Origin: an archaeon
GTDB lineage: Archaea > Aenigmatarchaeota > Aenigmatarchaeia > Aenigmatarchaeales > JACQIB01
Direction: 5' to 3'
Assembly (NCBI GenBank): GCA_035291225.1
Contig: DATDSO010000010.1
Span: 82,090-146,089 of the forward strand
DNA: 64,000 nucleotides
Part shown: in pieces, positions 2,693 through 37,158 of the stretch
Numbering within the stretch: the first letter of the stretch is position 1
Layout: each line of letters opens with the position of its first letter
The notes under the pieces: model-generated
Database searches by the model: none
What the model was told of the DNA's origin: nothing
Seen by the model: the letters and a program-made list of their open reading frames with translations, nothing else
Translations under genes and position numbers: made by a program

Positions 2693-2859
2693 AAAAAAAT
2701 TTCATAGGCTCGGCAAATTCGTAAACTCATTTGCCTCGCCGACTAATGTGTGAAAAGAAAAAATCGGACGCGAAAGAATTTTTTGGCAATAGGATTTTGA
2801 CACATCAGTTGCGAGCGAGTTTTGGTTTACCAAAACGAGCGAGCCTTAGAAAAAAAATC

Positions 2860-3624: not shown

Positions 3625-3637
3625 TTGGTGAAAATTT

Positions 3638-4183: not shown

Positions 4184-4188
4184 TATTT

Positions 4189-5595: not shown

Positions 5596-6827
5596 TTTTT
5601 CTGAATGAAAAATTCTGGTTGGGAATAAAAAAAGATTTTCCTGTTTTGCAAAGAAAAATAAATGGAAAGAAAATTATTTATTTGGACAACGCAGCCACGA
5701 GTCAAAAGCCGCTCCAAGTTATAGAAGCAATTTCACATTTCTACAAAACCTGCAATGCAAATGTGGGCCGCAGCATTCACACGCTCGCAGAAGAGGCAAC
5801 TGAAAAGTTTGAGGAAGCGCGCGAGAAAGTTGCGCGATTTATTGGAGCTCCTTTCAGCAGAGAAATAATTTTCACGCGCAACGCTACTGAAGCAATAAAT
5901 TTAGTTGCTTATTCTTTTGGGCAAACTCTAAAAGCTGGCGATGAAATAATTTCCACTGTAATGGAGCACCACTCAAATATTGTTCCGTGGCAGTTTCTGA
6001 AAACCCGCGGGGTTAAATTGAAATTTATTGATATTGATGAAAATGGAAATTTGGATTTGCAGCAATTTAAAAAATTGCTGAGCAAAAAAACAAAACTTGT
6101 TTGCCTGACTCATGTTTCAAATGTTCTCGGAACAATAAATCCGGTTGAGGAAATTTGCAAGCTCGCTCATGCAGCAGGCAGCCTTGTGCTTGTGGATGGC
6201 GCGCAGTCTGCCCCGCACATGCCTGTTAATGTGAAAAAACTTGGATGTGATTTTTTTGTTTTCTCTGGGCACAAAATGCTTGGGCCAACTGGGATTGGAG
6301 TTTTGTGGGGGCGAGCAGAAATATTGGAAAAACTTTCTCCATTCTTGGGCGGCGGGGATATGATTCGCGAAGTGAAATTAGAAGAAACAACTTTCAATGA
6401 ACTCCCATGGAAATTTGAGGCAGGCACTCCGAATATTGAAGGAGCGATTGCTCTCGGCGCAGCTATTGATTATTTGGAAAAAATCGGAATGCAAAAAATC
6501 CGCGAGCACGAAATTGAAATTACAAAATATGCTCTGGGAAAACTTTCCGAAATTTCTGGTGTGAAAATTTCTGGACCCACTCACGCAGCCGAGCGCGGCG
6601 GAGTTGTTTCATTTAATCTGAAAGGAGCGCACCCGCATGATGTTGCGCAAATTTTAGATGAGAGTGGAATTGCAATTCGCAGCGGGCACGCATGCTGCCA
6701 ACCTTTAATGAAAAGGCTCGGAATTGCAGCAGTCTGCCGCGCGAGCTTTTACATTTACAATTCCAAGGAAGATGTGGACGCTCTTGTTGCAGGAATAGAA
6801 AAAGTGAAAAAGGTTTTGAGGATTTGA
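5592..6827 (+). CDS. sufS: Cysteine desulfurase SufS (class V aminotransferase). A GTG start is likely.
   Basis: The YLDNAATSQKP motif, PLP-lysine region SGHKMLGPTGIG and catalytic Cys region RSGHACCQP are present. Confidence 0.9.
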   Translation: MIFLNEKFWLGIKKDFPVLQRKINGKKIIYLDNAATSQKPLQVIEAISHFYKTCNANVGRSIHTLAEEATEKFEEAREKVARFIGAPFSREIIFTRNATEAINLVAYSFGQTLKAGDEIISTVMEHHSNIVPWQFLKTRGVKLKFIDIDENGNLDLQQFKKLLSKKTKLVCLTHVSNVLGTINPVEEICKLAHAAGSLVLVDGAQSAPHMPVNVKKLGCDFFVFSGHKMLGPTGIGVLWGRAEILEKLSPFLGGGDMIREVKLEETTFNELPWKFEAGTPNIEGAIALGAAIDYLEKIGMQKIREHEIEITKYALGKLSEISGVKISGPTHAAERGGVVSFNLKGAHPHDVAQILDESGIAIRSGHACCQPLMKRLGIAAVCRASFYIYNSKEDVDALVAGIEKVKKVLRI

Positions 6828-6831
6828 TTTT

Positions 6832-7359
6832 ATGCCAGGAAAAGTTTATCAGATAAATGTTAAGCCGGACACTCCTGGCGAACATGGTTTGCCAAAGAGA
6901 TCTGTTGAGCATGTTGTAGTAACTCGATTAGGTTTAGAAGGAGATTTCTGCAGGCACAGATATGAACATGGCAATGCTCCAGAGAGAGCTCTTTTAATTT
7001 ATCCTTTGGAAGAAATCAGGCTGCTTAAATTAGAAGGATGGCCTATTGAGGCTGGCCATATAGGAGAAAATTTAACAACAGAAGGAATTCCTTATGAACA
7101 ATTTGGCACTCAGCAGCAAGATGGAGGAAAACAAAAATATGTTCTCGTTGATGGAAAGAGATTTAGAATCGGTGAATCTGTTGAAATACAAATAGCAAAA
7201 GTTTGTAATCCCTGCTCTAATTTATCTCTGCTTCCTTATGTTGATAGAAAATTTCCAGAATTTTTCAGAAGAGTTGTTGGAAAAAGAGGTTGGTATGCAA
7301 AAGTTTTGAAAGATGGTGAAATCAAAAGAGGAGATCCAATAGCAGAGGTGGCAGCATGA
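6832..7359 (+). CDS. MOSC domain protein (Moco sulfurase C-terminal-like).
   Basis: About 175 aa beta-barrel MOSC pattern with a conserved Cys near the C-terminus (VCNPCS). It is embedded in the suf operon. Confidence 0.65.
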   Translation: MPGKVYQINVKPDTPGEHGLPKRSVEHVVVTRLGLEGDFCRHRYEHGNAPERALLIYPLEEIRLLKLEGWPIEAGHIGENLTTEGIPYEQFGTQQQDGGKQKYVLVDGKRFRIGESVEIQIAKVCNPCSNLSLLPYVDRKFPEFFRRVVGKRGWYAKVLKDGEIKRGDPIAEVAA

Positions 7360-7736
7360 GCCTTGACATGTACGCAGAACAAATCCTTGACTACTACAAA
7401 AATCCCCGAAATTTTGGGGAAATAAAAAATGCGCAAATTCATGCGCGCGATTTGAATCCTTTGTGCGGGGATGAGATAGAAATTTTTGCGAAAGCAAATG
7501 GTCAAATGATTTCTGAAATAAAATTCAAGGGCGTGGGCTGCGCGATTTCAATGGCAAGCGCCAGCATGCTTACAGAAAAAGCAAAGGGGAAAAATATTTC
7601 TGAAGTTATGAAATTTGGAGAGAAAGAAATCTTGGAAATGCTTGGAATAGAAGTTTCTCCTGCGCGAAAAAAGTGCGCAATGCTCGGGCTTTGGGTTTTG
7701 CAGATGGGCCTGAAAAAGTTTCTAGAGAAAAAATAA
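7356..7736 (+). CDS. sufU: SufU/IscU-like Fe-S scaffold or sulfur-transfer protein.
   Basis: Conserved Cys in NPLCGDEIEI, GVGCAIS and KKCAML, which is the NifU N-terminal domain pattern. Confidence 0.75.
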   Translation: MSLDMYAEQILDYYKNPRNFGEIKNAQIHARDLNPLCGDEIEIFAKANGQMISEIKFKGVGCAISMASASMLTEKAKGKNISEVMKFGEKEILEMLGIEVSPARKKCAMLGLWVLQMGLKKFLEKK

Positions 7737-7924
7737 TTCTAAAAATCAAAAATCACCCAATTAAAGTGGTTTGATATTAATGGGTGATTTAGGTGACAAT
7801 GTTTGGTGTTCCGATATTAGAAAAATAAAATACGAACACCACACATTGTCAGGATATCCAGATACCACAGATATAATTATGGTTGCTTTGCAACCACCTA
7901 TTAAAAATAGGTGGTATCTGTCTA

Positions 7925-8584
7925 TCAGCAATAGCACCCATAAGGCCCGCGGCCGCAGGACACGCAGCTGTTTCCTGAGCATCTCTTGCATCCGCTGCAC
8001 TGGGAATCATTTGTGCAGTCCACATCCACGCATTTTTTGTTTGAGCAAATTTGTTTGTAGCCGCAGGCTGAATTTGAGGTGCATTCGGCTGTTGTGGTTG
8101 TTGCGGGCAATGTAGTTGTTGTGGTTGAAGAAGTGGTAGTTGAAGGAGTTGTTGTAGGAGGCAATGTAGTTGTTGTGGTTGAAGAAGTTGTTGTTGAAGA
8201 ACTTGTTGTTGTGCTGCTGCTTGTCGCAGATGTTGTTGTTCCTTGCGGAATGTTTTGCTTTAATCCCGCAGATTCCTTAACCGCGCAAACAACCTGATAA
8301 GTTTTCGCGTCCATCCAAACTATTAGCTTTGTATCGTTGCCTTCATCATCAATTGTTGTTTTGTAATAGCTGCCGACTTGAAAATTCTCGCAGTCTTTTT
8401 TTATTTCTTCCATCCGCGAAACAATCTCTCCCTGGCTAATTAGGCTTGTGGCAATTTTTGCATTCGGATATTGTGAAAGAAAATTCTGAATAGCCGGACT
8501 TGCTTTCAAATAAAGATCAATTTGGCTGGCTGTGCAGCCTGCCACCAGAACAACTCCCAGAAGCAAAATAGAAATTATTTTCAT
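7925..8584 (-). CDS. Secreted lipoprotein with a Thr/Ser-rich linker and a C-terminal Cys-rich domain.
   Basis: Signal peptide plus lipobox LVAGC. A (T/S)n linker is present. The C-terminus reads CTSNSACGYKQICSNKKCVDVDCTNDSQCSGCKRCSGNSC. Confidence 0.6.
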   Translation of the reverse strand: MKIISILLLGVVLVAGCTASQIDLYLKASPAIQNFLSQYPNAKIATSLISQGEIVSRMEEIKKDCENFQVGSYYKTTIDDEGNDTKLIVWMDAKTYQVVCAVKESAGLKQNIPQGTTTSATSSSTTTSSSTTTSSTTTTTLPPTTTPSTTTSSTTTTTLPATTTTAECTSNSACGYKQICSNKKCVDVDCTNDSQCSGCKRCSGNSCVSCGRGPYGCYC

Positions 8585-8671
8585 AGATTAATAACTATCG
8601 GGCTATTTTTAAATGTTTTGTGGTTGGAGCTAAGAAGCTTTTTTGGATGGGTTGCGATTAAAACATAAAAC

Positions 8672-9007
8672 CTACTCGTATTCTCTCCAAACATTCTCGC
8701 ATTTCGTGCAGCGATAAAATCTTGTCGGTGGCTCATCGCTTGCGCGAGTTTGCTGCATCCACCAGAATGCCTCCACATGTTCACATTTTGGGCAGGCAAT
8801 ATTTGTTTTCGGAAGAACATCAACTTTCGCTTTTTTGTCAACAACAATAATTTTCTCATCCTTCTTTTGCATTGTTGAAGATATTTTAAAGTCACCCCTG
8901 CCGGCAGAAGAAGTTTTTTTCTTTCCGCAGTTCCTGCAAACCAGAGCAGTGCTTTTGCCAGCCTTGTGCGGCATCATCAGCCCGCCGCATTTATCGCAGA
9001 ATTCCAT
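8672..9007 (-). CDS. tfs: Transcription factor S (TFS) / RNAP subunit M-like, the archaeal TFIIS homolog.
   Basis: An N-terminal Zn ribbon CDKCGG...CRNCG and a C-terminal Zn ribbon CPKCEHVEAFWWMQQTRASDEPPTRFYRCTKCENVWREYE with an acidic loop. Confidence 0.85.
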   Translation of the reverse strand: MEFCDKCGGLMMPHKAGKSTALVCRNCGKKKTSSAGRGDFKISSTMQKKDEKIIVVDKKAKVDVLPKTNIACPKCEHVEAFWWMQQTRASDEPPTRFYRCTKCENVWREYE

Positions 9008-9070
9008 GGTTTTAGAGATGGAATTCGGGATTTTTAAAGGTTTATAAAATGGAAAAAATAAAGTTGTGTC

Positions 9071-9451
9071 ATGACACCAATAGAAACAATGGCTCTGCTT
9101 GTAGTTCTGCTTGGCTTGATAAAACTTGCTGTTATTCTGTCAAACCCGCAAAAATGGATGTTTGTTATGCGCGCATTTTACTCGCGGCCAAAATTTACAA
9201 CGGCTTTTTCAGTTGCGCTTATTGCAATTTCCCTTTTTTTCCTTTTAGCTGAACTTACAATTGTCCAGATTTTTGCAACAATGATTTTTTTCATGGGCTT
9301 AATGTTAATGGGATTTTCTGCGTATTCAAAGGAGATGCTTGCATTGTCTCAGAAAATGTTGAAAGATAAAAATTCTCTGAAAAAAGCATGGCTTTCAATT
9401 GTTGTTTGGCTCGCGCTTTCTGTTTGGGTTTTGTATGGGATTTTATTTTGA
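9071..9451 (+). CDS. Small integral membrane protein.
   Basis: Four predicted TM helices. A TATA-like TTTATAAAA lies ~30 nt upstream. Confidence 0.45.
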   Translation: MTPIETMALLVVLLGLIKLAVILSNPQKWMFVMRAFYSRPKFTTAFSVALIAISLFFLLAELTIVQIFATMIFFMGLMLMGFSAYSKEMLALSQKMLKDKNSLKKAWLSIVVWLALSVWVLYGILF

Positions 9452-9489
9452 GCTGGTATTTTTAAGCGGGAAAAATAATTCTTCCTCTG

Positions 9490-10221
9490 TTGATTCCAAT
9501 GGCAACAATCCCAGACTATGTAATGCCCGCGCTTGGCATTGTCACTCCGGCAGCCGCGCTTGCTGCGTGGTTTATCCTGAATAAAAGTTTGCTCTCTGCA
9601 AAAACAAAAATTCCTTTGAATGAAAGAAAGCGCTTCTCTTATTTTTTGCTTGCTGGGCTTTTGGGATGGCTCGCCATTTCTTTTGTTTTCGGCTGGCTGG
9701 AAATTTTCAGGAATTTTTCATTTCTTGTTTTAATTTTCGGCTACGGAATTCCATACCTCGCAAATAAATTTCTCAACAGCTCGCAAATGCTTCAGCTTGC
9801 TGTTGACTCTGCCCCGAACCACTGGCTAATCGGAATCCAGCTTTACAGAGTGCTCGGAATAATTTTCCTAACAATGTACGCAGCAGGATTGCTTCCGGCG
9901 GCGTTTGCAATCCCATCAGGAGTCGGAGATATTATTGTCGGACTTTCCGCTCCTGTTGTCGCTTATCTGCTTTTCAAGAAAACTTCCAACTCAAAAAAAC
10001 TTGCGATTTTCTGGAACTATATTGGAATTCTGGATTTGATAATCGCGCTTACAATGGGCCCAATTACTGCGCCAACTCCGGTTCAGCTCCTCTCTTTTGA
10101 CGCGCCCAACTTGCCTATAATTTCCTATCCGCTTGTTTCAGTGCCGGCGTTTGCTGTCCCATTCTCGCTTATTTTGCATTTGTTTTCTTTGAGAATTTTG
10201 GGAAAGAAATTTAAATTGTAA
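9490..10221 (+). CDS. Integral membrane protein of unknown function.
   Basis: Multiple hydrophobic helices and no soluble domain motif. Confidence 0.5.
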   Translation: MIPMATIPDYVMPALGIVTPAAALAAWFILNKSLLSAKTKIPLNERKRFSYFLLAGLLGWLAISFVFGWLEIFRNFSFLVLIFGYGIPYLANKFLNSSQMLQLAVDSAPNHWLIGIQLYRVLGIIFLTMYAAGLLPAAFAIPSGVGDIIVGLSAPVVAYLLFKKTSNSKKLAIFWNYIGILDLIIALTMGPITAPTPVQLLSFDAPNLPIISYPLVSVPAFAVPFSLILHLFSLRILGKKFKL

Positions 10222-10224
10222 TTT

Positions 10225-10728
10225 TTATGCCAGCCCCAGCAATTCAAACGCCCCAACTTTTACCCAGCCGAGAATTGGAATTTTCAGAATTGCTTTTCCA
10301 TGTATTTGCGATTCTCTCACGCCATGCTCAAAATCCCCCTGAACAGAATTTGCATCGCCTTTTGTTTCAAAAGTTCCATCAGAATTTTCTGAAACAATCC
10401 TGTGAATAATTGGAAATTTATATCCGCCCTTCACTGCGTCAAAAACAATTATGTCGCCGACTTTGTAGCCTTGGATTTTATTTTCTCCGAGGAACATTCC
10501 TGTTACTCCGCTGCTTGGGCTTGAAACAATTATCATATCCCCTTTGTAAAAAGTCGGAACCATGCTGCCGGAGAAAACAGCAACAACAGGAGTGTCTGTG
10601 CTTAATGCAAAACCCAGTCCTGTCATTGCAAGCCAAGCAAAAAAGAAACCGCCCACAATGTAGATTGCAGTTCCCAAATTTGTGTCGCGGATTTTTTTCC
10701 ATTTTGATTTCAGTTCGGACATCTTCAT
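10225..10728 (-). CDS. Signal peptidase I of archaeal/ER type (S26B, Sec11-like).
   Basis: An N-terminal TM anchor, the catalytic Ser box FSGSMVPTF, and a His box IIHRI. Confidence 0.8.
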   Translation of the reverse strand: MKMSELKSKWKKIRDTNLGTAIYIVGGFFFAWLAMTGLGFALSTDTPVVAVFSGSMVPTFYKGDMIIVSSPSSGVTGMFLGENKIQGYKVGDIIVFDAVKGGYKFPIIHRIVSENSDGTFETKGDANSVQGDFEHGVRESQIHGKAILKIPILGWVKVGAFELLGLA

Positions 10729-10767
10729 AATTACCTACCAATAATTAGTATATGTGGTATAAAAAGC

Positions 10768-11634
10768 TTACGAAAGCACAACCCAAACTCCCGCGAGCAT
10801 TATTAACGCTCCAATAATCTTAAGCTTAATTCCCTTTTCTCCAAACAAGGCAAAGCCCGCGAAAGCCATTAAAATTGTTCGCAGCATTTGCACCGGAGTG
10901 AAAATTGTCGGTGACACAAGTTTGACCGCGGCAAAAACCGCCCACAGCGCAATTGCATAAAAAATCCCCAATATCAACGACCAGTTATTGAAAATATTTT
11001 TAAATGGCTTGCCAGATTTTGCATAAACAGCAGAGTAGATTGCAGTCATACCCAGAATTATGTAAAAAGTATATTTAGTTGGACTGAAACTTGCGAGCGC
11101 TAGCTTGTCAACATTTGCGGTCAGCCCGTAGAGGAAAGCCATCGCAAGCATATAGAAAGAAACTTTTGATTTTATGATTCCAGAAAAAGTTTCTGAAAGA
11201 TTGTTTTTCAGATGTACTACAAAAGCTCCTGCTGCCACAAGTGCAGCTCCCACAAAAATTTTCAGCTGAAAAGATTCTCCCAATAGAAATATTGCCAGCG
11301 CCGCCACAAAAACCGGACGCATGTTTTCCAGAGGACCGACAATTGAAAGCTCGCCGCTTTTGAGAGCTTTAACAAAAAATATGAACGCTGCTGCATTGAG
11401 CCCAATTGAAGCAAGCAAATAAAAAAGCGCCGACTGTGATGGAAAAATCTGCGGCTCTGAAATGTATGATGAAATAAAAATTGGAGAGAATAAAATTGTT
11501 GCAGTCAGAAATCCTCCGAGCGCTACTGCAATAGAATCCATTTTCAATTTGTCTGTTGCCCACTTTGCTGCTATCAACCCAATGCTCACTGAAACTATGT
11601 TCAGAATTGTATAAAGAATCCATCGCTCGACCAT
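10768..11634 (-). CDS. EamA/DMT-family transporter.
   Basis: About 10 TM helices arranged as two EamA-like halves. Confidence 0.65.
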   Translation of the reverse strand: MVERWILYTILNIVSVSIGLIAAKWATDKLKMDSIAVALGGFLTATILFSPIFISSYISEPQIFPSQSALFYLLASIGLNAAAFIFFVKALKSGELSIVGPLENMRPVFVAALAIFLLGESFQLKIFVGAALVAAGAFVVHLKNNLSETFSGIIKSKVSFYMLAMAFLYGLTANVDKLALASFSPTKYTFYIILGMTAIYSAVYAKSGKPFKNIFNNWSLILGIFYAIALWAVFAAVKLVSPTIFTPVQMLRTILMAFAGFALFGEKGIKLKIIGALIMLAGVWVVLS

Positions 11635-11665
11635 TTTTTATTTATAGTTAATTAGACTTAAAAAT

Positions 11666-12310
11666 TCACGCCCGCCCCACACTCTCTCCTAAAACCACAC
11701 CAGAAGCAATCAAGTGCGCGCAGCGCAGAGGCTCTGGAACAAAAGCGCGCGTTGTGCAAACTGATAAAATTTCCGCGGCGTCTTTTGGAGAAAGGCCCGC
11801 GCACTGAAAAAAGAATTTTCCTTTTTTCTTTTGTAAAGAAAATTCTGCAGTGTAAACAGTTCCGGCCGCGCGCGCACATTCGAGAATTTTTGTGGGCTTT
11901 TCGGTTTTCGTTGCAGCAGCGAAAAATTTTTCAAAATCAATTTTCTTTCTTGTAACTGCAATTACTGGAAGCTTTGTTTTCTCAAAAATTTTCTGTATAT
12001 TCACAATATTGAAGCCTGCAAAAGTAATTCCATCCAGCATTATCACACGAAGGTCTTTGAACTTGCACTTCTTCACTGAAGAAATAATTTTTTCCTCCGC
12101 GTTCGAGCCGTCGATTTCTATTTCTTCTTTCAAAAGCCCGTCCATGAATTGCCCGCCGCGGAAAACCGCGCCAATTAAAATTGTTTTTCCTTTTTCATGG
12201 AATTCAAACGGCCCGTCATCAAAAGCAAGCACGCGGATTTCAGGCTTGATTTTTTTGAAGGATATCATAGAATAAATTAAATCTTCGTAAATAAAAATTA
12301 AGAGTTTCAA
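11666..12310 (-). CDS. UPF0215/DUF99-family protein. The true start is probably the internal Met (MISFKK...).
   Basis: Conserved archaeal DUF99 blocks: VLAFDDGPF, IGAVFRGG, and a GITFAGFN-like segment. Confidence 0.55.
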   Translation of the reverse strand: MKLLIFIYEDLIYSMISFKKIKPEIRVLAFDDGPFEFHEKGKTILIGAVFRGGQFMDGLLKEEIEIDGSNAEEKIISSVKKCKFKDLRVIMLDGITFAGFNIVNIQKIFEKTKLPVIAVTRKKIDFEKFFAAATKTEKPTKILECARAAGTVYTAEFSLQKKKGKFFFQCAGLSPKDAAEILSVCTTRAFVPEPLRCAHLIASGVVLGESVGRA

Positions 12311-12318
12311 AACAAATT

Positions 12319-12585
12319 TTATTCTTTCAAAGCTCTCTTAAACTCTTTCTCGAGCTCATCGCACTGCTCAGCAACAGCATCTGCCGCGCGCTGCAAAAGC
12401 TTGCGCGGATTTGAGCCGTGCACAATTATTTTTGGCTCTAAAAGAAATGGATGCTCGCGAACAGCAGCAGCCTCCCCTCCTTCTGCCCAGACTTGCTTTG
12501 CAATAACCTGCGAAACTGTCTGCGTGTCCCCGCCGAGCTCAACAGATAATTTTTCCTTTTCGTCTAAAAGAACTTTGATGTTCAT
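12319..12585 (-). CDS. rpoL: DNA-directed RNA polymerase subunit L (Rpb11 homolog).
   Basis: An 88-aa protein with the archaeal RpoL pattern: ...LELKGETHTLGN-like core EHPFLLEPKIIVHGSNP. Confidence 0.65.
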   Translation of the reverse strand: MNIKVLLDEKEKLSVELGGDTQTVSQVIAKQVWAEGGEAAAVREHPFLLEPKIIVHGSNPRKLLQRAADAVAEQCDELEKEFKRALKE

Positions 12586-12660
12586 ATATTTTCAATAGCA
12601 GCAGGGCTTTTTAAAGTTTTACTCTGGCAAGCATTTAAAGTTAAAATTTGAACCTTCTTT

Positions 12661-13245
12661 ATGTTGTCGTCCTATATATCGATGAAAGAATATGCCCTAT
12701 ACAGATTGATATCCTATTTGTTTAGTCCTATGTTTGTGGCAGCGGCTGAAGTTGTTGCTTTCGCTCCATTCTCAAAAAATATCGTGGGTTCTCTGCTGAT
12801 AGGTTTTATTTTTCTTACTCTTTCACCGACTTTGATTATTTATAGAAAGTATAAAAGGGGAGAGGTCGATATTGATATTTCCGATAAGGAAGATAGACCA
12901 AGAATTTTTATTTATTCGATTATAAGCTTTGGTATCTGCACAGCGCTTTTCTGGTTAGTAAAAGATAAGCTGATGTTCACGGTTGCATTATCGTACTTTC
13001 TTGTTACAACAGTTATAATGCTGATGAATTTTTTCTCAAAAATCAGCACACACACAGCCGGCTTGGCGGGGCCTGTAACAGCAATTGTTTTTTATTTCGG
13101 GATTTATTATGCCGGACTTTTTTTGCTTTTGCTTCCCGTTGCATATTCAAGATTTAAATTAGGCAAGCACAATAGATTTCAGCTTTTTTCAGGAGCAATA
13201 ATAGCGAGTGTACTAACTTATTTAATTTTCACAGCGGTGTTTTGA
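12661..13245 (+). CDS. Polytopic membrane protein, possibly PAP2-like.
   Basis: Five to six TM helices. The SHTAG / SRFKLGKH segments resemble PAP2 phosphatase motifs. Confidence 0.45.
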   Translation: MLSSYISMKEYALYRLISYLFSPMFVAAAEVVAFAPFSKNIVGSLLIGFIFLTLSPTLIIYRKYKRGEVDIDISDKEDRPRIFIYSIISFGICTALFWLVKDKLMFTVALSYFLVTTVIMLMNFFSKISTHTAGLAGPVTAIVFYFGIYYAGLFLLLLPVAYSRFKLGKHNRFQLFSGAIIASVLTYLIFTAVF

Positions 13246-13643
13246 TGCTTTGTTCAATATGCTACAAAAAAGAAGGAGAGTGGCAATGCCAAGTCTGCAA
13301 GAGGATTGTCTGCGCAGATGATGCAAGACCGACAGGCAATGGGGTTTTTTGCGTGCAGCATGCTCCACAATCTTTCCAAAATAAACAGCAATCTCCCGCA
13401 ATAGAAGAAAGTGAGAGCTTGAAATCCATCAAGTCGGCATTCTTCACGGTTCTGTTCCTCACGTTGGGCATGGCTGTCATTGGATTTGTCGGCCAGCAGT
13501 TTGTGCAGACAACAGAATTACCTGAAAATGTGCAGGATGCCATAAAGTCTTTAACTTCTGTAGGCATAACAGTTATCTCTTTGATGGGAGTTGTAACTCT
13601 GATACTTGGGGTGGCGTACTTTGCCATGAGAAAGCGAAAATGA
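13242..13643 (+). CDS. Zinc-ribbon (B-box-like) protein with a C-terminal membrane anchor.
   Basis: CSICYKKEGEWQCQVCKRIVCADD...CVQH Cys/His cluster followed by two TM helices. There is a 4-nt overlap with the upstream gene. Confidence 0.45.
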   Translation: MMLCSICYKKEGEWQCQVCKRIVCADDARPTGNGVFCVQHAPQSFQNKQQSPAIEESESLKSIKSAFFTVLFLTLGMAVIGFVGQQFVQTTELPENVQDAIKSLTSVGITVISLMGVVTLILGVAYFAMRKRK

Positions 13644-13676
13644 AAAGCTTATAAGTCTGAGTGTATAATATTTTTT

Positions 13677-15077
13677 GTGATTTCAATGAGAGGTTTCGCT
13701 CTGGCTATTTTGCTTTTGGCCTTCTTCACCGCGCCTGCGCTTGGAGCTGAAGAAAATCTGGAAAATATAACAATTTCCGCAACAAATCCTTCAGAAGTTC
13801 TGGCGGGCGATTCAACTTTTTTTGAAGTGACTGTCACTAATAACTTTTTGGAAACGGATTGGTTTAGCATTTCAGTTTATCCTTCAGATTGGACAACAAT
13901 AGAAAATGGAATCTCTTCATTTATGCTTGGGAATGGCGGGAGCAAAACTTTAAAAATTTTCGTCAGTCCTCCAGTTGACGTTCGAGCGGCAAAATATGTT
14001 TACACAATAAATATTCAGAAAAGCTCCGGAGAGAAAGCCTTGAAAGATGTTGTTGTCGGAGTCCAGCAAAGATATGTTTCTGCTCTAATTTCTGATTTGA
14101 GATTAAGCTGCACCGAATGTGCGGGGCAATTAACAACAACAGCAAGAGTCAAGAATGTCGGCAACACACCAATAGCAAACGGGATTTTAGCCTTCTCTGT
14201 TGGTAATTTCAAAAAAGCTGTGGTAATAGATAATCTTAATCAGGGAGAGGAAAAAGAGTTTTCTGCCACATTTTTGCCGGTAACATGGGAGCCACATGAG
14301 TATGAAGTTTTTGTGCAGCTAGCAGCAGGAGCGAGCAGCGATTCTAAAACCGCGAGATTTTCAGTCCCGCCGATTACAAATTTCATCACAGACAAAAGCG
14401 AGCGAGATACTTTTTGGGGAAAGCGTGTGACAGCTACAGTTAGAAATGTTGGGAATGTAAAAGGGCCAGCGACAATTTCATCTGGCTCTGATTTCAGTCC
14501 GTTTATCGCTCTCTATCCAGATACAGCCGGCGCATCAATAACAGGAAATGCTGTAAGCTGGTATGCTGAACTCAAGCCAGGTGAATCAAAGACAGTTTCT
14601 TACAGCCAAGTTTTCTGGCCGACACCATTTATTGTTTTGTTTTTGATTTTTGCCGCGCTTTATGGCCATTCAATCGCAACAGCACTTGAAATAAATAAAT
14701 TCGCTCTGGGAACAGGAAAAGAGTTTGGAGTTTCCATAAAAATCAAAAACAAGGGAACTCGTGCAGATGGGGTTGTCGTGCGCGATGTGCTGCCTCATGG
14801 ATTTGATTTGGTTCCGATTTTTGAAACAGTCAAGCCCATAATCAGAAAAATTTCTGATGGGACTGAGTTGATTTGGAGGCTCGGCTCGGTCGGGAAGGGA
14901 GAAGAAAGGGTTTTGCATTACAGGGCAAAAAGCGGAGGCCATGGTGGAGCCATTCCACCTGCGGTTTTGCGTGGCGCTAGAGGCAGAAGCATTGTCTTGA
15001 GAAAATCAAACTATGTTGTTCTTCCAAAAGCCGCCAATGCAGAGCCAACAAAAGTCAAAGTAAGAGTCGTAGAGTGA
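13677..15077 (+). CDS. Secreted surface protein with CARDB/DUF11-like beta-sandwich repeats and a TM anchor.
   Basis: N-terminal signal peptide. Repeated ...TV(T)NVGN... blocks (KNVGNTPIANG, RNVGNVKGPA, IKNKGTRADG). An internal hydrophobic helix PTPFIVLFLIFAALYG. Confidence 0.6.
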   Translation: MISMRGFALAILLLAFFTAPALGAEENLENITISATNPSEVLAGDSTFFEVTVTNNFLETDWFSISVYPSDWTTIENGISSFMLGNGGSKTLKIFVSPPVDVRAAKYVYTINIQKSSGEKALKDVVVGVQQRYVSALISDLRLSCTECAGQLTTTARVKNVGNTPIANGILAFSVGNFKKAVVIDNLNQGEEKEFSATFLPVTWEPHEYEVFVQLAAGASSDSKTARFSVPPITNFITDKSERDTFWGKRVTATVRNVGNVKGPATISSGSDFSPFIALYPDTAGASITGNAVSWYAELKPGESKTVSYSQVFWPTPFIVLFLIFAALYGHSIATALEINKFALGTGKEFGVSIKIKNKGTRADGVVVRDVLPHGFDLVPIFETVKPIIRKISDGTELIWRLGSVGKGEERVLHYRAKSGGHGGAIPPAVLRGARGRSIVLRKSNYVVLPKAANAEPTKVKVRVVE

Positions 15078-15087
15078 GTTCTTAAAA

Positions 15088-15275
15088 GATATTTTTGGTC
15101 CCGCGGGGGAGATTTGAATTTGGGAATAAAAATTTATTTTTTTATTTCTCCCAGCCTCACGATTTCTTTTTTATTTCGAAACGCTGACTAAAAAATTCTT
15201 GCTTGTGCGCAAAAATCTACAGTCGTGCGCTCCACCATCTCTCCGCGCGCAAACTTTTATGTGCGCGATTGAGCT
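15088..15275 (-). tRNA. tRNA-Tyr(GTA) with three putative introns (D-loop, canonical 37/38, T-arm).
   Basis: On the minus strand, acceptor CCCGCGG pairs with CCGCGGG followed by A-CCA (C1:G72, an archaeal Tyr identity). Anticodon stem CACGA/TCGTG with loop CTGTAG..A. T-loop TTCAAAT. D-stem GCTC...GAGC. Total length is 188 nt, so about 110 nt of insertions are inferred. Confidence 0.5.
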
Positions 15276-15347: not shown

Positions 15348-15464
15348 TGGTCGCGGCCAAGGCGGAGCGGCAAGACCTGTTCCCATTCCGAACACAGTAG
15401 TGAATCGTTCCAGCGATTTTGATTGTACTGCCGAAAAGGCGGGAAGTCAAAGACGCTGCGGCCA
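15348..15464 (+). rRNA. rrf: 5S ribosomal RNA.
   Basis: Loop C CCCAUUCCGAACACAGUAGUGAA matches the universal 5S CCGAAC...AGUGAA pattern. A downstream GAUUGUACUG...GGCGGGAA is present. A terminal helix TGGTCGCGGC pairs with GCTGCGGCCA. The ORF 15199-15483 over it is spurious. Confidence 0.8.
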
Positions 15465-15755: not shown

Positions 15756-15862
15756 GCCCGAGTAGTATAGTGGCCTAGTATGCGAGCTTGTCATGAAATT
15801 TTTTAAAGAAAAATTTCAACAGAAAGCTTGTGACACGAGTTCAAATCTCGTCTCGGGCGCCA
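15756..15862 (+). tRNA. tRNA-Asp(GTC) with a canonical ~31-nt intron after position 37/38.
   Basis: Acceptor GCCCGAG/CTCGGGC plus G-CCA. Anticodon stem CGAGC/GCTTG with loop TTGTCA(T). T-arm ACGAG-TTCAAAT-CTCGT. A TATA-like TTTAAATA lies 28 nt upstream. Confidence 0.75.
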
Positions 15863-31337: not shown

Positions 31338-33434
31338 TCAGGCGTTCGTTTCTTGTTCCTCTTCTTCAGAATCTTGTTCTTCGTACACCTCGCTTACGCT
31401 GCCGAGTATTGTTCCGAATACATCTGTTGGATCTTTAATTGTTTTTATCTGCCCACCGCTTTCCTCAATCAGTTGAGTGAGTGCATTTTTTGCAGGATAT
31501 TTAACTATATGCAAAAGCGCAAGTTTGTTTCCGCGAGAAGTTGCTGTGCGTATAAACTCATTTGTTTCCTCGCTGATTTGGGAATTAAGTTCATCGATTT
31601 CGGCATCGGTTATCAAAACAGTAAAAACTGGATCTTTGTTTTTCTTGAGGATTTGTGTCATTGTTCCAGAAGGCAGAATTGTTCCTCCATTGGCTTCCTC
31701 TTTTGCCAAAAACACATTTTCGGCGCGCATGTAATTGGTTGTCCATTCTGTGTGCAGTTCTTCTGGGTATGGATCTGCATACGTTGCGCTGAAGTCAAGA
31801 GCGGCAACTCTTGCTCCGTGCTTTCCAGCTAAATCAAGAGCAGCAAAGGCTCCGACATTAGCTGACTCGTATTTTTTATCAAAAGCCATACTTCCAGAAG
31901 AGTCTCTGATGATAAGCAGATCAGGCCTTGCTACATAAACTTTGTGGCCTTTTCTAACCATCCTTGTTCTTTCTTTTAGCGTTGTTCTTCCCGGAATCAT
32001 TTCTGGAGAAATTGAAAGGGATTTCTGCACATCCAACTCTTCAACAGAGTCCCCGATATTCCACTTGCCAAAATATGTTCTTCTCGGTCTCCCTCTTCCT
32101 TTCTGAGTGGGCTTAACTTCCATCAAGTTTGCCGCTTTAACCCTGTACCAATATCTTTTTAATTCTCCCTCTTGAATGCCGGCTGCGCTCATAACTACTT
32201 TAAAATTTTCATAATTATTTTCATTTCTGCTGAAAGCTTCGGAAGCGTAAGCAGCCTGCTCTTCCTCGCTCATTTGCGGCGTGGTGCCTACCATGGCTCT
32301 TATATCAATCGGCAAACCTGCTTTGTTGGGGTATTCTTTTTTATCAGAGCATTTGCAGCCCGCGCCCTCTCCTTCTTTTTTCTCCTCTTGTTTTGATTTT
32401 CTTTGCGGCCTTCCTTGACCTCTGCCTTCAACAGGAATTGAAGGCGGCGCATATCTCCTTCCTTCCTGATCTTTAGATTTTTCATCTCCTTTTAACTTCT
32501 TTAAAATTCTTTTAATTATTTCACCTCTTCCGAAACCCGGCTCTTTCTCTTCTTGCTCTTTTCCTGGGCTTCCTCCCTGACCGCCGCTACCATCAACAGG
32601 CAGCCCCATATTTCCTTTCATACTTTGGTCTTGTTTCATTTGCTGGTTTTGTAATCTTTGCTGCTCTCTTAAAGCATCTTTTCTCATCACAGGCCCAATA
32701 ACTTTAGAGAACTCGCCGATCTTATCGTACCAGAGGCCCGAATCCCTATAATCTTTTCCAAGAACTTCTGCAACTCTTTCCGCTGCTTCTACTTCATGCC
32801 TGCTTAATCCTAAAGCTTCAACACCAAGATCAGTGTTCCACATTGATTCGTATGCTTTGTGAAATATTTTTACTGACTGGGATGCTTCCCCTTCCAATTT
32901 TTTATCCACGAGATTTTTAACATATTTCATGAATTCCCTTCGCCACCATTCCACAGTCTGGGAATTTGTTTTCTTTCCATAGCCATCTCTTCTCCAAGTG
33001 TCAATTACTATATCTCCGAATAGATTTACAATATTGTTTGCGTAATCAGGGACATGATCTCGTGGTATATTTTCTCCTGCCAATGATTTTGAAACAGCAT
33101 CAACCATTGCTGCCCTAGTTCTAATATCAAATGGAAAAATCTTGTAGTGAGTAATTTCATGCTCTGCACACTGCTGAAAATAATCTTCCTTCTCCCTTTC
33201 TGTCAAGCTGTCAGGTATTGCTGCTGCATTTAAATGCGGCCTCGCGCCTTCGTGCCATTCCAAACAAAAGGGGGACGGATCAGCAGGATCATAAATTATT
33301 TCAGGATCCGGAAGCTCGTTGCATGCTCTCATATTCCAACAGGCTCTATTGTAAACGCCTCCCCATCTTTGAAGATCAGCAGGGCTTTGAGGCTTTGCCT
33401 CTCTATCGCTTGCATCGGAGTTGTGTTCTGTCAT
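31338..33434 (-). CDS. Large vWA (MIDAS) domain protein, the MoxR partner. It has an N-terminal domain with HExxH, a low-complexity linker and an acidic tail.
   Basis: The C-terminal vWA carries the MIDAS motif DSSGSM and a downstream TDAEID. The N-terminus carries AEHEITHY. A Gln/Gly/Lys/Glu-rich linker is present. The C-terminal tail reads EEQDSEEEEQETNA. Confidence 0.75.
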   Translation of the reverse strand: MTEHNSDASDREAKPQSPADLQRWGGVYNRACWNMRACNELPDPEIIYDPADPSPFCLEWHEGARPHLNAAAIPDSLTEREKEDYFQQCAEHEITHYKIFPFDIRTRAAMVDAVSKSLAGENIPRDHVPDYANNIVNLFGDIVIDTWRRDGYGKKTNSQTVEWWRREFMKYVKNLVDKKLEGEASQSVKIFHKAYESMWNTDLGVEALGLSRHEVEAAERVAEVLGKDYRDSGLWYDKIGEFSKVIGPVMRKDALREQQRLQNQQMKQDQSMKGNMGLPVDGSGGQGGSPGKEQEEKEPGFGRGEIIKRILKKLKGDEKSKDQEGRRYAPPSIPVEGRGQGRPQRKSKQEEKKEGEGAGCKCSDKKEYPNKAGLPIDIRAMVGTTPQMSEEEQAAYASEAFSRNENNYENFKVVMSAAGIQEGELKRYWYRVKAANLMEVKPTQKGRGRPRRTYFGKWNIGDSVEELDVQKSLSISPEMIPGRTTLKERTRMVRKGHKVYVARPDLLIIRDSSGSMAFDKKYESANVGAFAALDLAGKHGARVAALDFSATYADPYPEELHTEWTTNYMRAENVFLAKEEANGGTILPSGTMTQILKKNKDPVFTVLITDAEIDELNSQISEETNEFIRTATSRGNKLALLHIVKYPAKNALTQLIEESGGQIKTIKDPTDVFGTILGSVSEVYEEQDSEEEEQETNA

Positions 33435-33448: not shown

Positions 33449-34228
33449 TTAAGGTTTGGTTCCTTTGTAGGTAGCAAAAACTTCATGAAATTTTTTCAAA
33501 ATTGACACAACGGTTTTAATCCCATATTTTTGTGCTGTTTTTCCAATAGAATCAAGCGGCGGAAGCTGCCTTAGCAAATGATTACCCCATTGATTATATT
33601 CCAATTCAGTGGGCGCTTCTATTTTTTTGTCTTCCAACGCATCCACTAAAACAGCCGTCATAATGGGGCGCATATCTTTGGGCATAAGCAGCGCAATCAT
33701 GTAAGGGTGGGCCACTTTTGCTCGCTTTTGTTTGACATCGGTATCTTCATTATAATTCTGCCCCGGCACATTTACATCAGTAACTTTACTCCCTTCTAAA
33801 AAATATTCCGGGAACAAAATTTTTAGATTTTCCAAATCAACAACTTCTCCAACATCTGCCACATCTGTTTCCAGCAAATATGGATTTATTCTTTTTAACA
33901 ATGAATGCCAAACAGGTCTTTTTAGCTCTACTTTCGAATTAAATCTGTTAACTCGCCTTTCTCCCGTATCAAAGTTCGGAACTAATGTTATGCAGTGCGG
34001 TCCAGCATATCTGATAAACAAATTGTCATGTCCATAAATTTTGCATAAATATTCTCCAAGAACTTTTTCCATTTGCTCAATCAATTGCGGCGGAGTTCCA
34101 TCGCCAGAAGGCGGGGCTTTCTCCGCATCCTTTAGGCTCCCGTCTCTTGGAGACACTGGCTGAGAGCCATGCCTTCTCTCAAGTGCTTCCTTTATTGATG
34201 GGCTGGATGGTTCTGCCATAAAAATCAA
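33449..34228 (-). CDS. Hypothetical protein, paralog B of a tandem pair in the MoxR-vWA operon.
   Basis: Shares the N-terminal PSSPSIKEALERRHGSQPVSPRDGS and colinear blocks (NPYLLETDVADV.., AHPYMIAL) with the upstream gene. Confidence 0.6.
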   Translation of the reverse strand: MIFMAEPSSPSIKEALERRHGSQPVSPRDGSLKDAEKAPPSGDGTPPQLIEQMEKVLGEYLCKIYGHDNLFIRYAGPHCITLVPNFDTGERRVNRFNSKVELKRPVWHSLLKRINPYLLETDVADVGEVVDLENLKILFPEYFLEGSKVTDVNVPGQNYNEDTDVKQKRAKVAHPYMIALLMPKDMRPIMTAVLVDALEDKKIEAPTELEYNQWGNHLLRQLPPLDSIGKTAQKYGIKTVVSILKKFHEVFATYKGTKP

Positions 34229-35037
34229 TTTCTGCCTCTGTAAAGATTTGCAACATCAACAACTGCTTTTATTATGGGCTTCAAATCTTTCACTCCGTAT
34301 TCTTCTGCTACTTTAGCAAAACATTCTAAAGGCGGAACAGAGCCCCAAAGACAGCTTGCAACTCTCCCCATTTTAACCTCCGTTGGAACAATAACCATTT
34401 TATTTTTTATTGCGAGGGTTATCACAGCTGTTACATATGGCCTGACATCAGGCACTACAGATAACGCAAGCATATATGGATTTGCCAGTTTAGCTCGTCT
34501 GATATTTTCAGCTTCATTATTATAATCATTATCAACGAATGTCTCTCTAAAAGTTTCCAAAGCAGGAATTTCAGGTAACATATCCTTCAAAGCTTCCAAG
34601 CTAACAGCTTCTTCAACCTGAGCCAGATCTGTTTCCAGAAGATATGGAGATTTTTTTCTCAAAATAGAACGCCACATCTGCCTGCTCACACTGTCAGCTA
34701 ATCTTGGCTTAAAGCTACTTAAATTAGAATTTTGAAATACTGGCTCAACGAAAAGCAAGTAAGGCCCCATCCCTTTTAATGAAAAATGGTCATTTTCATA
34801 AATTTTATGAAGGCAGTCTCCCAACACCACTTCCATTTCTTCGAGAAGTTCTATCGGTATTTCACCTGTATGCGCAGAAAATTTTTTTCCGGCCTTTTCG
34901 CTTTCACTGCTATCTGAACCGCTCCCGTCTCTTGGGGATACTGGCTGAGAGCCATGCCTGCGTTCAAGAGCCTCTTTAATTGATGGGCTTGATGGAGGAC
35001 TTGGAGGTCCGCTTTCCATTTTATCACCTCTGTCCAC
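34225..35037 (-). CDS. Hypothetical protein, paralog A of the tandem pair. The true start may be the internal MESGPPS.
   Basis: The same N-terminal 23-aa motif and colinear blocks (SPYLLETDLAQV.., ANPYMLAL). It overlaps the stop of the MoxR gene. Confidence 0.6.
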   Translation of the reverse strand: MDRGDKMESGPPSPPSSPSIKEALERRHGSQPVSPRDGSGSDSSESEKAGKKFSAHTGEIPIELLEEMEVVLGDCLHKIYENDHFSLKGMGPYLLFVEPVFQNSNLSSFKPRLADSVSRQMWRSILRKKSPYLLETDLAQVEEAVSLEALKDMLPEIPALETFRETFVDNDYNNEAENIRRAKLANPYMLALSVVPDVRPYVTAVITLAIKNKMVIVPTEVKMGRVASCLWGSVPPLECFAKVAEEYGVKDLKPIIKAVVDVANLYRGRN

Positions 35038-36502
35038 TGCCGGGGTTTCTAAGTCTCTCGCGTATTAACGCCCTAAGTTGGTTTTGCGCACCCAGAGGCA
35101 AAGAACGGTATTCAGGTCTTCTCAAGTCTAACATCATTGTTGCAAGCTCTTGCGGATTTTTCATGCCGCCGATGCGGCCAACATTGTCTCTGTAAAGAGC
35201 ACTGTCCATTCCTTCAACAAAAGGAACCATATCTAATTTCACAATCAAGTCATCAAACTGTTGAAGCTTTTGGACATCTGAAGAATTTCCTTTGCCTTCC
35301 AGCAGAGTAAGGTAAATTTTTTCTGCTTCCAGTCTCTGATCCAACTTTCTCATGGAAATTTTCCAAGCGTCTCCAACCATTTCCATGAGGTTTCCATTAT
35401 AAGGGTCTTTCATCAAAATTTGATCATTGGGTTTTATTCTATGATATAAAGCATACGGGGCCATAGCTCCAGCAACCTCTACTGAAACCGAAGGCTGATC
35501 CAAAAGCCATGCAACTCTTTTTGCAACTTTGCTCCATCTTTCATGAGTTCTTGTGGAAATGTGGGCATCGGTCATCTGGCATGGATTTTTTATTCCAACC
35601 GCAGAAACTTTTATGTCAGTAGCATAGTGGCATTTGTTGCACAAACCTTCGGATGGTTTTCCCCTTCCTTTAGCTTTATCACCGTCGGCTTTTATGCAAA
35701 GCGATAATTCTTTTTCAAAGTAAGTCATCTGCAACATGGCATCCGAGTCAATCGGAATTTTATCTGCTTCTTTTGTTGCTTCTGTCAAATCTTCAAATGT
35801 CGTAATTTGCTCTAATCCTCTGCCATGAAGAGAAACATCTTTTCTGCCTGCAATCTCAGCCAAGTCTGCCATAGAAGCTGGCTCAACAGGGCAAGATAAA
35901 ACGAAACGGTCGTACATAGCTGGGTCAACTTCAAATGTTCCTTCTCCAAAAGGATTTATGGTTCCAAAAACTCTTTGATCGGGAACAACGAAAGCCGCGT
36001 CTGCATATTTCCAAACGCCCTCTTCTATACCTGCGAAAAACATATTCATAACTTCCGGAGAGGCTCTGTTGAACTCATCTGCCACCTTCCACCTTCCAAG
36101 CGTCCATTTTCTGGGCACAGGAACTTCTTGAGGATTATTTCTGTCCAATAATTTTGCCATGTCTGGGCGAGCGACTATTTTTTCTTCTGTTTGCTCTGGG
36201 TGAAGCCTAAGAACATTAGTTTCAATTTCTGATTCAGGTATGCCTGCAAGCATTACACCCAATGCTTTTGCTAGAGAAGTTTTTCCGTCTCCATGTCCAC
36301 CCACATATAGAATTGTGCCACCCGGTGTTATTGCTGTTGCGATTCCTAAAAATGCCGCCGCCTCATAAGATTCTCTCTGTTTTACACCACCCCGATCCAC
36401 GACAACACGAAAAGGATCGGAGCTATTCAGATAAATAAGCCTGTCTCCCAATGTGTAATAGGCGCTCATTAATTTATCTCTAAGCTTCTCTGGATTAGCC
36501 AT
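35024..36502 (-). CDS. MoxR-family AAA+ ATPase with an extended Cys-containing C-terminal region.
   Basis: Walker A GGHGDGKT. The MoxR-specific Walker B region VADEFNRASPEV. Sensor-1 region FGTINPFGEGTFEVDPAMYDRF. A promoter-like AAGCTTTATATA lies ~35 nt upstream on the minus strand. Confidence 0.8.
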   Translation of the reverse strand: MANPEKLRDKLMSAYYTLGDRLIYLNSSDPFRVVVDRGGVKQRESYEAAAFLGIATAITPGGTILYVGGHGDGKTSLAKALGVMLAGIPESEIETNVLRLHPEQTEEKIVARPDMAKLLDRNNPQEVPVPRKWTLGRWKVADEFNRASPEVMNMFFAGIEEGVWKYADAAFVVPDQRVFGTINPFGEGTFEVDPAMYDRFVLSCPVEPASMADLAEIAGRKDVSLHGRGLEQITTFEDLTEATKEADKIPIDSDAMLQMTYFEKELSLCIKADGDKAKGRGKPSEGLCNKCHYATDIKVSAVGIKNPCQMTDAHISTRTHERWSKVAKRVAWLLDQPSVSVEVAGAMAPYALYHRIKPNDQILMKDPYNGNLMEMVGDAWKISMRKLDQRLEAEKIYLTLLEGKGNSSDVQKLQQFDDLIVKLDMVPFVEGMDSALYRDNVGRIGGMKNPQELATMMLDLRRPEYRSLPLGAQNQLRALIRERLRNPGSGQR

Positions 36503-36564: not shown

Positions 36565-37158
36565 TTAATAAAAAAGCAAATCCGCTGTTGCAGCAGAAAC
36601 AACTGCAGGCATTGTTATCACAGCCACTTGCTTGAAAGCATCTATCCCAGCGCCTGTTCCAAGTATTGAGACAAAAATAAATGAAGTCAGAAAAGAAATT
36701 ATGTAAACCTCAACTGCGCGCAAAGCTGAGGCTCTGAAAATTTGTGTTGAGACAAACTTTCTCCTGCGCGAAAAATAAATCAGGAGAAATCCCAAAAAGA
36801 ACCCGAGAAAAATCACAGACAACATATTCAATAAATTGAGCCTAGCTGAAATATCCCAAACTTCCTGTGTTACAGTAAAGAACATCGCACCGAAAGCTGC
36901 GCCCACAAAATCCTGCGCAACAAGAATTGTCGGCTTTCCGTGGAGGAATCCAAATTCCTTTTCCTTCCTTTCTTTATACTTCAAATCTTCCAGAGCTTCA
37001 ATATCTTCTGTGATTTCCTGTGCGACTTTTTCCAGGCGCTCCTCAGCAATTTCAAGCTTGTCAGCCTCGCTCATTTTCCTTAGTTTTTTCTTTATTGTTC
37101 TGCTTTTTTCAGCAGCCGCTATCCGGCCGCGCATTTTCAAGGGAAAACCTTTTGCCAT
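36565..37158 (-). CDS. Membrane protein with an N-terminal coiled-coil and four C-terminal TM helices.
   Basis: A charged coiled-coil region (EADKLEIAEERLEKVAQEITEDIEALEDLKYKERKE) followed by hydrophobic helices. It lies 62 nt upstream of the MoxR gene on the same strand. Confidence 0.5.
   Translation of the reverse strand: MAKGFPLKMRGRIAAAEKSRTIKKKLRKMSEADKLEIAEERLEKVAQEITEDIEALEDLKYKERKEKEFGFLHGKPTILVAQDFVGAAFGAMFFTVTQEVWDISARLNLLNMLSVIFLGFFLGFLLIYFSRRRKFVSTQIFRASALRAVEVYIISFLTSFIFVSILGTGAGIDAFKQVAVITMPAVVSAATADLLFY

Follow-up and report, generated by a model that had tools for sequence, protein, structure and literature searches.

Why should two tandem genes that have drifted apart over most of their length begin with the same short peptide? 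The question is raised by a four-gene run on the minus strand of a 64,000-nucleotide stretch of archaeal DNA (Aenigmatarchaeota; assembly GCA_035291225.1, contig DATDSO010000010.1, positions 82,090 to 146,089), referred to here as the window. The run encodes an AAA+ ATPase, two small paralogous proteins that we name A and B, and a protein of 698 amino acids containing an HExxH motif and a vWA domain (the HExxH-vWA protein). Our analyses indicate that the 25-residue block shared by A and B is most likely a modular N-terminal recognition tag on proteins that are partners of the AAA+/HExxH-vWA pair. They point to the identical opening of the two paralogs being the local instance of an undescribed tag system in tiny-genome archaea. 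The paralogs, the two copies of the block and the core of the tag are located as follows:

34225–35019, minus strand: paralog A, 264 amino acids, ATG at 35019
33449–34219, minus strand: paralog B, 256 amino acids, ATG at 34219, same layout as A
34921–34995, minus strand: shared 25-codon block, copy A, PSSPSIKEALERRHGSQPVSPRDGS, residues 9–33 of A
34136–34210, minus strand: shared 25-codon block, copy B, PSSPSIKEALERRHGSQPVSPRDGS, residues 4–28 of B
34951–34980, minus strand: core tag IKEALERRHG in A, aligning with a family-wide N-terminal motif
34166–34195, minus strand: core tag IKEALERRHG in B, placed by the 35-sequence family alignment

All 25 residues of the block (PSSPSIKEALERRHGSQPVSPRDGS) are identical in A and B. 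At the DNA level, 65 of the 75 positions are identical (86.7%), and BLASTN independently recovered the same 75-bp match (86.67%, E about 1e-21). Outside the block, the proteins are 36–37.5% identical and the DNA about 53%, and the longest other run of identical residues is seven. The difference in amino-acid identity between the block and the rest of the proteins is highly significant (Fisher's test, p = 7e-11). A first-pass annotation of this region had proposed that conservation in the 5' block far exceeds that in the remainder of the genes, and the pairwise alignment bears this out. Its description of the two DNA copies as almost identical was right about the high identity but overstated it, and the shared peptide that it reported is real, although it comprises 25 rather than 23 residues and lies a few bases away from the positions given. 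Searching for the peptide elsewhere, as the annotation had suggested, gave a clear result within the window: six-frame translation of all 64 kb yielded the block peptide and its core motif in A and B only. A third SSPSI, at 321–335, lies out of frame within a superoxide-dismutase-like gene and was discarded as a chance occurrence.

The operon is 100% identical in four metagenome contigs, the longest of which is 874 kb. Among its strain variants (loci L001–L004, L032 and L033; 99.8–100% identical), the tag shows no polymorphism. The variant L033 (ANAN16 scaffold, otherwise 99.8–99.9% identical) has a 160-bp deletion in B just past the tag, at about 33966–34125. The edges of this deletion are an imperfect 9-bp repeat (GGGAGAAAG / CGGAGAAAG), and the frame is shifted, giving open reading frames (ORFs) of 43 and 137 amino acids. 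Either B can be dispensed with and the variant is genuine in the population, or the contig was misassembled.

We then asked how far the conserved opening extends beyond these two genes. An exhaustive profile search of 1.84 billion representatives, with E values up to 0.001, gave 39 proteins: A, B, a 43-residue fragment of B and 36 distant homologues. Word-indexed searches, run with A by itself or with a 35-sequence profile, returned almost nothing past the genome's own proteins. The distant homologues are 210–310 amino acids long, apart from one 133-residue fragment, and nearly all of them open with M-[PT]-I-[DE]-[DE]-A-L-x-K-[IL]-E. The consensus of the family motif is M-P-I-D-D-A-L-E-K-I-E, with which S-IKEALERRHG of the window proteins aligns. 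The motif is present in about 30 of the 35 aligned sequences and lies at residue 3 in 24. Across the family, mean pairwise identity is 44% for the tag, 13.5% for the linker that follows it and 25% for the globular domain. The motif shared by the family is an acidic amphipathic helix, with hydrophobic residues at tag positions 1, 5 and 8.

A is laid out as an N-terminal extension, the tag helix, a disordered linker and a globular domain. The AlphaFold2 model of A, built from the family alignment, is a confident one, with a predicted local distance difference test score (pLDDT) of 85.9 and a predicted template modelling score (pTM) of 0.78. It predicts a helix at residues 14–21 (IKEALERR), disorder at 22–55 and an alpha/beta globular domain at 56–264. 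Foldseek gave no match to this model at E below 0.3 in PDB or BFVD, and A and B are without match in Pfam, NCBIfam and PADLOC.

Related loci in other genomes, numbered here with the prefix L, were searched for with an alignment of the AAA+ protein. Operons with tagged genes encode from 1 to 15 small proteins that open with the tag, and genes of the AAA_5 and HExxH-vWA type stand alongside the tagged genes wherever the contig extends far enough. The loci that best illustrate the variation in gene order and tag are these:

L008: HExxH-vWA gene (709 amino acids), four genes, AAA_5 gene, three genes; all seven small proteins start with MPIDDAL
L020 (Candidatus Woesearchaeota RIFCSPLOWO2_02_FULL_30_14), 72–15115: vWA gene, ten tagged genes, AAA+ gene, five tagged genes; tag MPID[DQEK]x[LI]
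L021: vWA gene, three tagged genes, AAA+ gene, three tagged genes; tag M[TS]IEDSLxKI
L012: four tagged paralogs; tag M-x-x-L-D-x-K-L-K-x-I
L023–L025 (Aenigmatarchaeota-type): tag M[SG]I[AD][DE]E[IM][KR]KARE
L026, L027 and L037–L040: one tagged gene between the AAA+ and vWA genes; tag W-[ED]-[EDT]-[IV]-[LIV]-[KS]
L030 (sister genome): ribbon-helix-helix (RHH) gene, AAA+ gene, three small genes, HExxH-vWA gene, two small genes; all five small proteins tagged

The first-pass annotation had linked the shared peptide to the neighbouring MoxR/vWA machinery. Because the same synteny recurs in many genomes, the tag is indeed linked to the AAA+ and vWA genes. The nearest relative of the window operon is that of the sister genome L030, whose vWA protein is 58–61% identical to that of the window. 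Its five small proteins carry IAQALEKRHGKP, and the tag, [GN]-I-A-[GQ]-A-L-E-x-x-[HFQ]-[GR]-K, lies at residues 13–25 (for example MNIAQALEKRHGKLP). Not one of these five proteins came up among the relatives of A and B.

The same picture of a common tag on otherwise different proteins emerged across the loci. When the first 35 residues of 49 tagged proteins were removed, the remaining sequences fell into six BLAST families (of 22, 8, 5, 4, 4 and 3 members) and three singletons, and hhalign gave every pair of tagged families a probability below 2%. Judged by these comparisons, the tag sits on at least six families without detectable homology to each other. Pfam searches of the other tagged families gave nothing significant except TPR-like repeats in one L008 protein. 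Mean identity of the tag is 0.57 within genomes against 0.32 between genomes (permutation p = 2e-4); thus, the tag is uniform within a genome and differs between lineages. The largest expansion that we saw is the 15-kb array of L020, in which all 15 small proteins start with MPID and belong to at least five families; the same array is present in L034 and L035.

What keeps the block so alike in A and B? All ten DNA differences are synonymous and spread over nine codons, and none is non-synonymous; hence, the peptide is kept by purifying selection. Selection on the peptide was one of the possibilities raised in the annotation, and the sharing of the core with distant homologues fits it as well. 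The synonymous changes are distributed unequally. In the core (IKEALERR), six of the eight codons differ between A and B (expected fraction of identical codons by chance, 0.41), while only three of the 17 codons of the lineage-specific flanks (PSSPS and HGSQPVSPRDGS) do so (0.31 expected, p = 1.6e-5). The contrast between core and flanks gives a Fisher p of 0.01, on small numbers. The flanks (14 of 17 codons identical) also exceed the identical residues in the remainder of the genes (37 of 77 codons; p = 0.014), and in the second half of the block 37 of 39 DNA positions are identical. By this measure the flanks seem to have been homogenised later, or to be under constraint as DNA, which is not the case for the core in between.

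These numbers bear on two explanations in which the block would owe its likeness to events at the nucleotide level. One, which extends the gene conversion raised in the annotation, is that the block simply results from conversion or a partial re-duplication between the tandem paralogs and needs no function of its own. The sharp boundaries of the block, its 87% DNA identity within genes otherwise at 53%, and the surplus of identical flank codons all speak for it. However, the ten substitutions that have accrued are every one synonymous, the core is as saturated as the gene remainder, and the core is kept in distant homologues and in families without detectable homology, both beyond the reach of conversion. 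Where tag residues are identical, codon identity is moreover close to expectation in L030 (0.41 observed, 0.35 expected), L008 (0.50 and 0.45), L020 (0.57 and 0.55) and L021 (0.60 and 0.52), and above it in L012 (0.82 and 0.57). Chance-level identity in four of these five genomes argues that their tags are held by selection on the peptide rather than by ongoing conversion. The flanks of the window block could stem from a recent short conversion or an N-terminal swap, but this would account neither for the saturated core in their middle nor for the retention of the peptide. The core thus needs no conversion, whereas for the flanks the annotation's proposal may still hold; as an account of the whole block, we consider it unlikely. 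The other explanation is that the 75 nt act as an RNA or DNA element common to both genes, such as a structure, a small-RNA target or a translational element, for which the near identity of the second half of the block could be cited. Against it, RNA folding of either copy, with or without flanks, was no more stable than that of shuffled controls (z-scores of -0.02, -0.77, +0.85 and +0.44), and no Rfam family matches at the block, the Rfam matches in the window being a 5S rRNA and one tRNA, both elsewhere. In addition, the part conserved across genomes, the core, shows the most synonymous change, and the tags of other genomes are synonymously saturated. Selection on the nucleotide sequence itself, which the annotation had named beside the peptide, therefore finds no support here, and we regard such an element as highly improbable.

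The two genes flanking A and B, and the motifs that characterise the larger of them, are:

35024–36502, minus strand: MoxR-like AAA+ ATPase, 492 amino acids, Pfam AAA_5 score 31.8 bits (cut-off 22)
31338–33434, minus strand: HExxH-vWA protein, 698 amino acids, studied in a nine-homologue alignment
33147–33161, minus strand: HEITH, a zincin-like HExxH, with alignment-invariant H92, E93 and H96
31890–31904, minus strand: DSSGS, the DxSxS element of the metal-ion-dependent adhesion site (MIDAS), residues 511–515, invariant

The ATPase has a Walker A motif, GGHGDGKT, at residues 68–75 and a Walker B motif, WKVADE, at 138–143, and its homologues score higher still on AAA_3 and AAA_5. By profile and by Walker motifs, the product of 35024–36502 is a predicted MoxR-class AAA+ protein. 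Cysteines C269, C288, C291 and C308 are invariant in all homologues aligned from other operons and form a zinc-ribbon-like insertion. To our knowledge, such a Cys4 insertion is unusual among MoxR ATPases, and it is a candidate receptor element.

The 698-amino-acid protein has the HExxH motif in its N-terminal domain and a vWA domain at its C-terminus; the low-complexity linker between the two is rich in Q, G and K. The MIDAS set DSSGS (511–515), GGT (583–585) and TD (609–610) is invariant in the nine homologues, and so are N137, D141 and D145 downstream of the HExxH motif. Pfam VWA_2 matches four of the nine homologues (best E, 4.6e-6); the window protein itself has no Pfam match, and the profile gives weak matches to vWA-domain chains in the PDB. 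Together, these motifs and matches indicate that the C-terminal domain is of the vWA type and has a complete MIDAS. For the N-terminal HExxH domain, neither Pfam nor the PDB gave a sequence match. An AlphaFold2 model of the protein from a two-sequence alignment was unusable (pLDDT 34).

We propose that the tag, an amphipathic helix I-x-x-A-L-E-x-x followed by a disordered linker of 20–45 residues and a globular domain, would dock each small protein onto one common receptor or site in the AAA+/HExxH-vWA module. With one common receptor per lineage, tag and receptor would co-evolve. Once docked, the tagged proteins would be remodelled, assembled or proteolytically processed by the module, or used by it as interchangeable adaptors. 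The window tag has extra lineage-specific flanks, PSSPS and QPVSPRDGS, which are identical in A and B and were perhaps homogenised more recently. We give this docking proposal, with co-evolution of tag and site and with remodelling, assembly, cleavage or adaptor use to follow, somewhat better than an even chance. Its more specific form, in which the AAA+ and HExxH-vWA proteins of DPANN-type archaea recognise a lineage-specific tag on 1 to 15 proteins and assemble, cleave and so activate, or deliver them, is a serious possibility that we rate a little short of even. In our literature searches we found no description of this tag or of this type of operon.

Several observations weigh against the docking proposal. 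We have not identified the receptor of the tag, and found no AAA+ or vWA positions that co-vary with it. No acidic position of the tag is invariant (positions 2–3 are mostly D-D, but K-E or A-Q in the clade of the window), which weakens a simple model in which the MIDAS binds a carboxylate of the tag. For the globular domains, neither a fold nor a family was recognised. Synonymous change is uneven within the 75-nt block, and peptide selection alone does not explain this. The Promethearchaeota have an AAA+/HExxH-vWA pair without adjacent tagged genes, indicating that the pair can work without them, and the lineages of L013 and L007 carry quite different shared N-termini.

Details of these last loci are as follows. 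In the Promethearchaeota/Promethearchaeia (Asgard) metagenome-assembled genomes of L015–L019, the AAA+ protein has 575 amino acids and the HExxH-vWA protein about 575, and in L016 the two genes are 6 kb apart. At 236–1793 of L013, a Ser-rich stretch ending in CPYA is found on two proteins of different families. At 4370–7189 of L007, MAGV[KR]VIEGATPDQD opens two genes that flank a different P-loop protein of 616 amino acids.

Other roles for the tag can be set beside docking. The tags might bind one another, so that their helices bundle the small proteins into a hetero-oligomer and the AAA+/vWA pair is only its assembly chaperone. Up to 15 tagged proteins per operon and the uniformity of the tag within a genome would suit such an arrangement, and the effector-associated domains of bacterial MoxR-vWA systems do use like-with-like contacts (PMC7159879). 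On the other hand, a helix of 8–10 residues is too short for a stable coiled coil, and the core components carry no copy of the tag. Operons with a single tagged gene (L026, L027 and L037–L040) have also retained this type of motif (W-E-D-V-L-K), so that something other than the tag itself is the more plausible receptor; mutual bundling accordingly appears unlikely to us. A further idea is that the tag is a targeting, encapsulation or secretion signal that sends cargo or effectors to a compartment, the envelope or a host cell. Sets of tagged genes expand, turn over and are replaced fast between sister genomes, in the manner of effector repertoires, and the hosts appear to be small-genome archaea of the DPANN type, which are often symbionts. 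The layout also matches that of microcompartment encapsulation peptides (PMC12339742, PMC4594438). The tag, however, lacks a hydrophobic stretch of the Sec or Tat type; the Pfam lists for up to 8–10 kb on each side of the operon in L001–L004, L008 and L030 contain no conserved shell, pore or membrane-translocon gene, and a DUF2391-like membrane protein upstream of the window operon is not conserved elsewhere. We therefore assign this idea a low probability.

The remaining alternative goes back to the annotation, which had suggested that the S/P-rich peptide could be a phospho-motif; the SP and SPR sites of the flanks would then regulate the hand-over of A and B to the machine. S-P-S and S-P-R do occur in the block, and neither flank differs at all between the A and B proteins. 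Yet the sister genome L030 keeps I-A-Q-A-L-E-K-R-H-G-K-P between flanks without SP sites, having extensions rich in G, N, Q and E, with H-G-K-P past the core, and most lineages start straight at M-P-I-D-D. No operon-linked kinase appears in the Pfam lists for the flanks of the same six loci. Since even the sister genome does not preserve the S/P content, the proposal is unsupported, and we think it very unlikely; the S/P flanks are at most a genome-specific addition.

The docking proposal can be compared with systems that are already known. Among pairs of a MoxR-type ATPase and a vWA protein, we considered CbbQ-CbbO, NorQ-NorD, RavA-ViaA and BchI-BchD, as well as eukaryotic Rea1/Midasin with the ubiquitin-like (UBL) domain of Rsa4/Ytm1. 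As in those pairs, an ATPase gene of the AAA_5/AAA_3 type here adjoins that of a vWA protein with a complete MIDAS. Unlike them, the vWA protein adds a conserved N-terminal HExxH domain and a low-complexity linker, and the ATPase, of about 490 amino acids, has the Cys4 insertion. Two different clients of Rea1 share one N-terminal recognition module, the UBL of Rsa4 and Ytm1. The shared element in the archaeal operons is instead a helical tag of about 10 residues and not a folded domain, with no invariant acidic MIDAS ligand evident. In the known MoxR/vWA pairs, the vWA partner is the substrate or client adaptor (PMC9976466, PMC4660213). The presumed clients here are 1–15 operon-encoded proteins without a recognised fold.

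The VMAP-MoxR-vWA systems are similar in that they add a fast-evolving third component to a core of MoxR and vWA, have short adaptor modules common to adjacently encoded proteins, and turn over their accessory genes fast (PMC7159879). Those systems are bacterial, have the strict order VMAP-MoxR-vWA and contain large multidomain VMAP proteins (Kaur, Burroughs, Iyer and Aravind 2020, PMC7159879); their vWA proteins bear C-terminal effector domains, and their effector-associated domains are folded and occur also on a core component (PMC7159879). In the archaeal operons, the AAA+ gene is followed by tagged genes and then HExxH-vWA, or else the vWA gene leads (in the window, AAA+, A, B, HExxH-vWA); the small proteins match no Pfam family, VMAP included, and the core proteins lack the tag. 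With encapsulation peptides (PMC12339742, PMC4594438), the tagged proteins share a terminal amphipathic helix, a poorly conserved disordered linker and the attachment of both to unrelated cargo in one locus; according to its model, A would have such a helix and linker. By contrast, the archaeal loci are without shell genes (no BMC-H or BMC-P domain occurs in the Pfam lists of the six loci named above), the partners are an AAA+ and an HExxH-vWA protein, and the hosts are archaea. The differing gene order and third component, and the lack of shell genes, place the operon in neither the VMAP nor the microcompartment systems.

The general principle of one docking motif for many proteins is familiar from other ATPases. 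The cofactor motifs VIM, VBM and SHP of p97/Cdc48, and the MIT-binding MIM of Vps4, occur in many unrelated proteins and each serve docking to one ATPase. However, p97/Cdc48 and Vps4 are members of the classical AAA clade, with N-terminal domains that serve as dedicated receptors, and in the MoxR-like protein described here no such receptor domain was identified.

Some further observations concern the surroundings of the operons. Upstream of the window operon lies the adjacent gene for the membrane protein mentioned above:

36565–37158, minus strand: DUF2391-like membrane protein, Pfam DUF2391 at 24.5 bits

No such gene is at the corresponding position in L030, L008, L020 or L021, and because it is not conserved beside the operon elsewhere, its product is probably outside the system. 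A small ribbon-helix-helix gene (RHH_1/ParD-like) lies directly upstream of the AAA+ gene in L030 (3819–3959) and L011 (499–639), but not in the window; it may be a dedicated regulator. L025 (contig CAZSPA010000041.1) is labelled as an uncultured Saccharibacteria bacterium. As it has an archaeal-type operon and an Aenigmatarchaeota-like tag (MGIADEMKKAREAD) under this bacterial label, it is probably misbinned. Viral contigs scanned with the AAA+ alignment contained no relative, within the limits of the search patterns, and there is thus no sign of a viral origin.

Three features of the window lie away from the operon:

15349–15464: stand-alone 5S rRNA (Rfam)
15756–15859: tRNA match of 104 nt (Rfam), 290 bp downstream of the 5S rRNA
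109–636, minus strand: ORF containing HCDIPCGIYDP

The tRNA match was not called by ARAGORN and is probably an intron-containing archaeal tRNA. We take HCDIPCGIYDP to be the nickel-hook motif of Ni-superoxide dismutase, an enzyme that would be uncommon in a small-genome archaeon.

MoxR-vWA pairs are widespread, and for most of them the clients and the way in which these are recognised lack description. In the operons analysed here, clients or adaptors seem to come labelled by the genome itself, through a short tag that co-varies within each lineage and could show in what way a MoxR/vWA machine chooses its partners. Through this tag, at least six archaeal protein families without any annotation also acquire a common context. 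More generally, tandem paralogs can owe an identical 5' end to a modular recognition motif and not to gene conversion. The set of tagged genes changes rapidly, in genomes that are very small, as expected of functions in the interaction with a host or a virus. If the docking proposal is true, these archaea would have a new kind of sorting or activation system, possibly serving such interactions.

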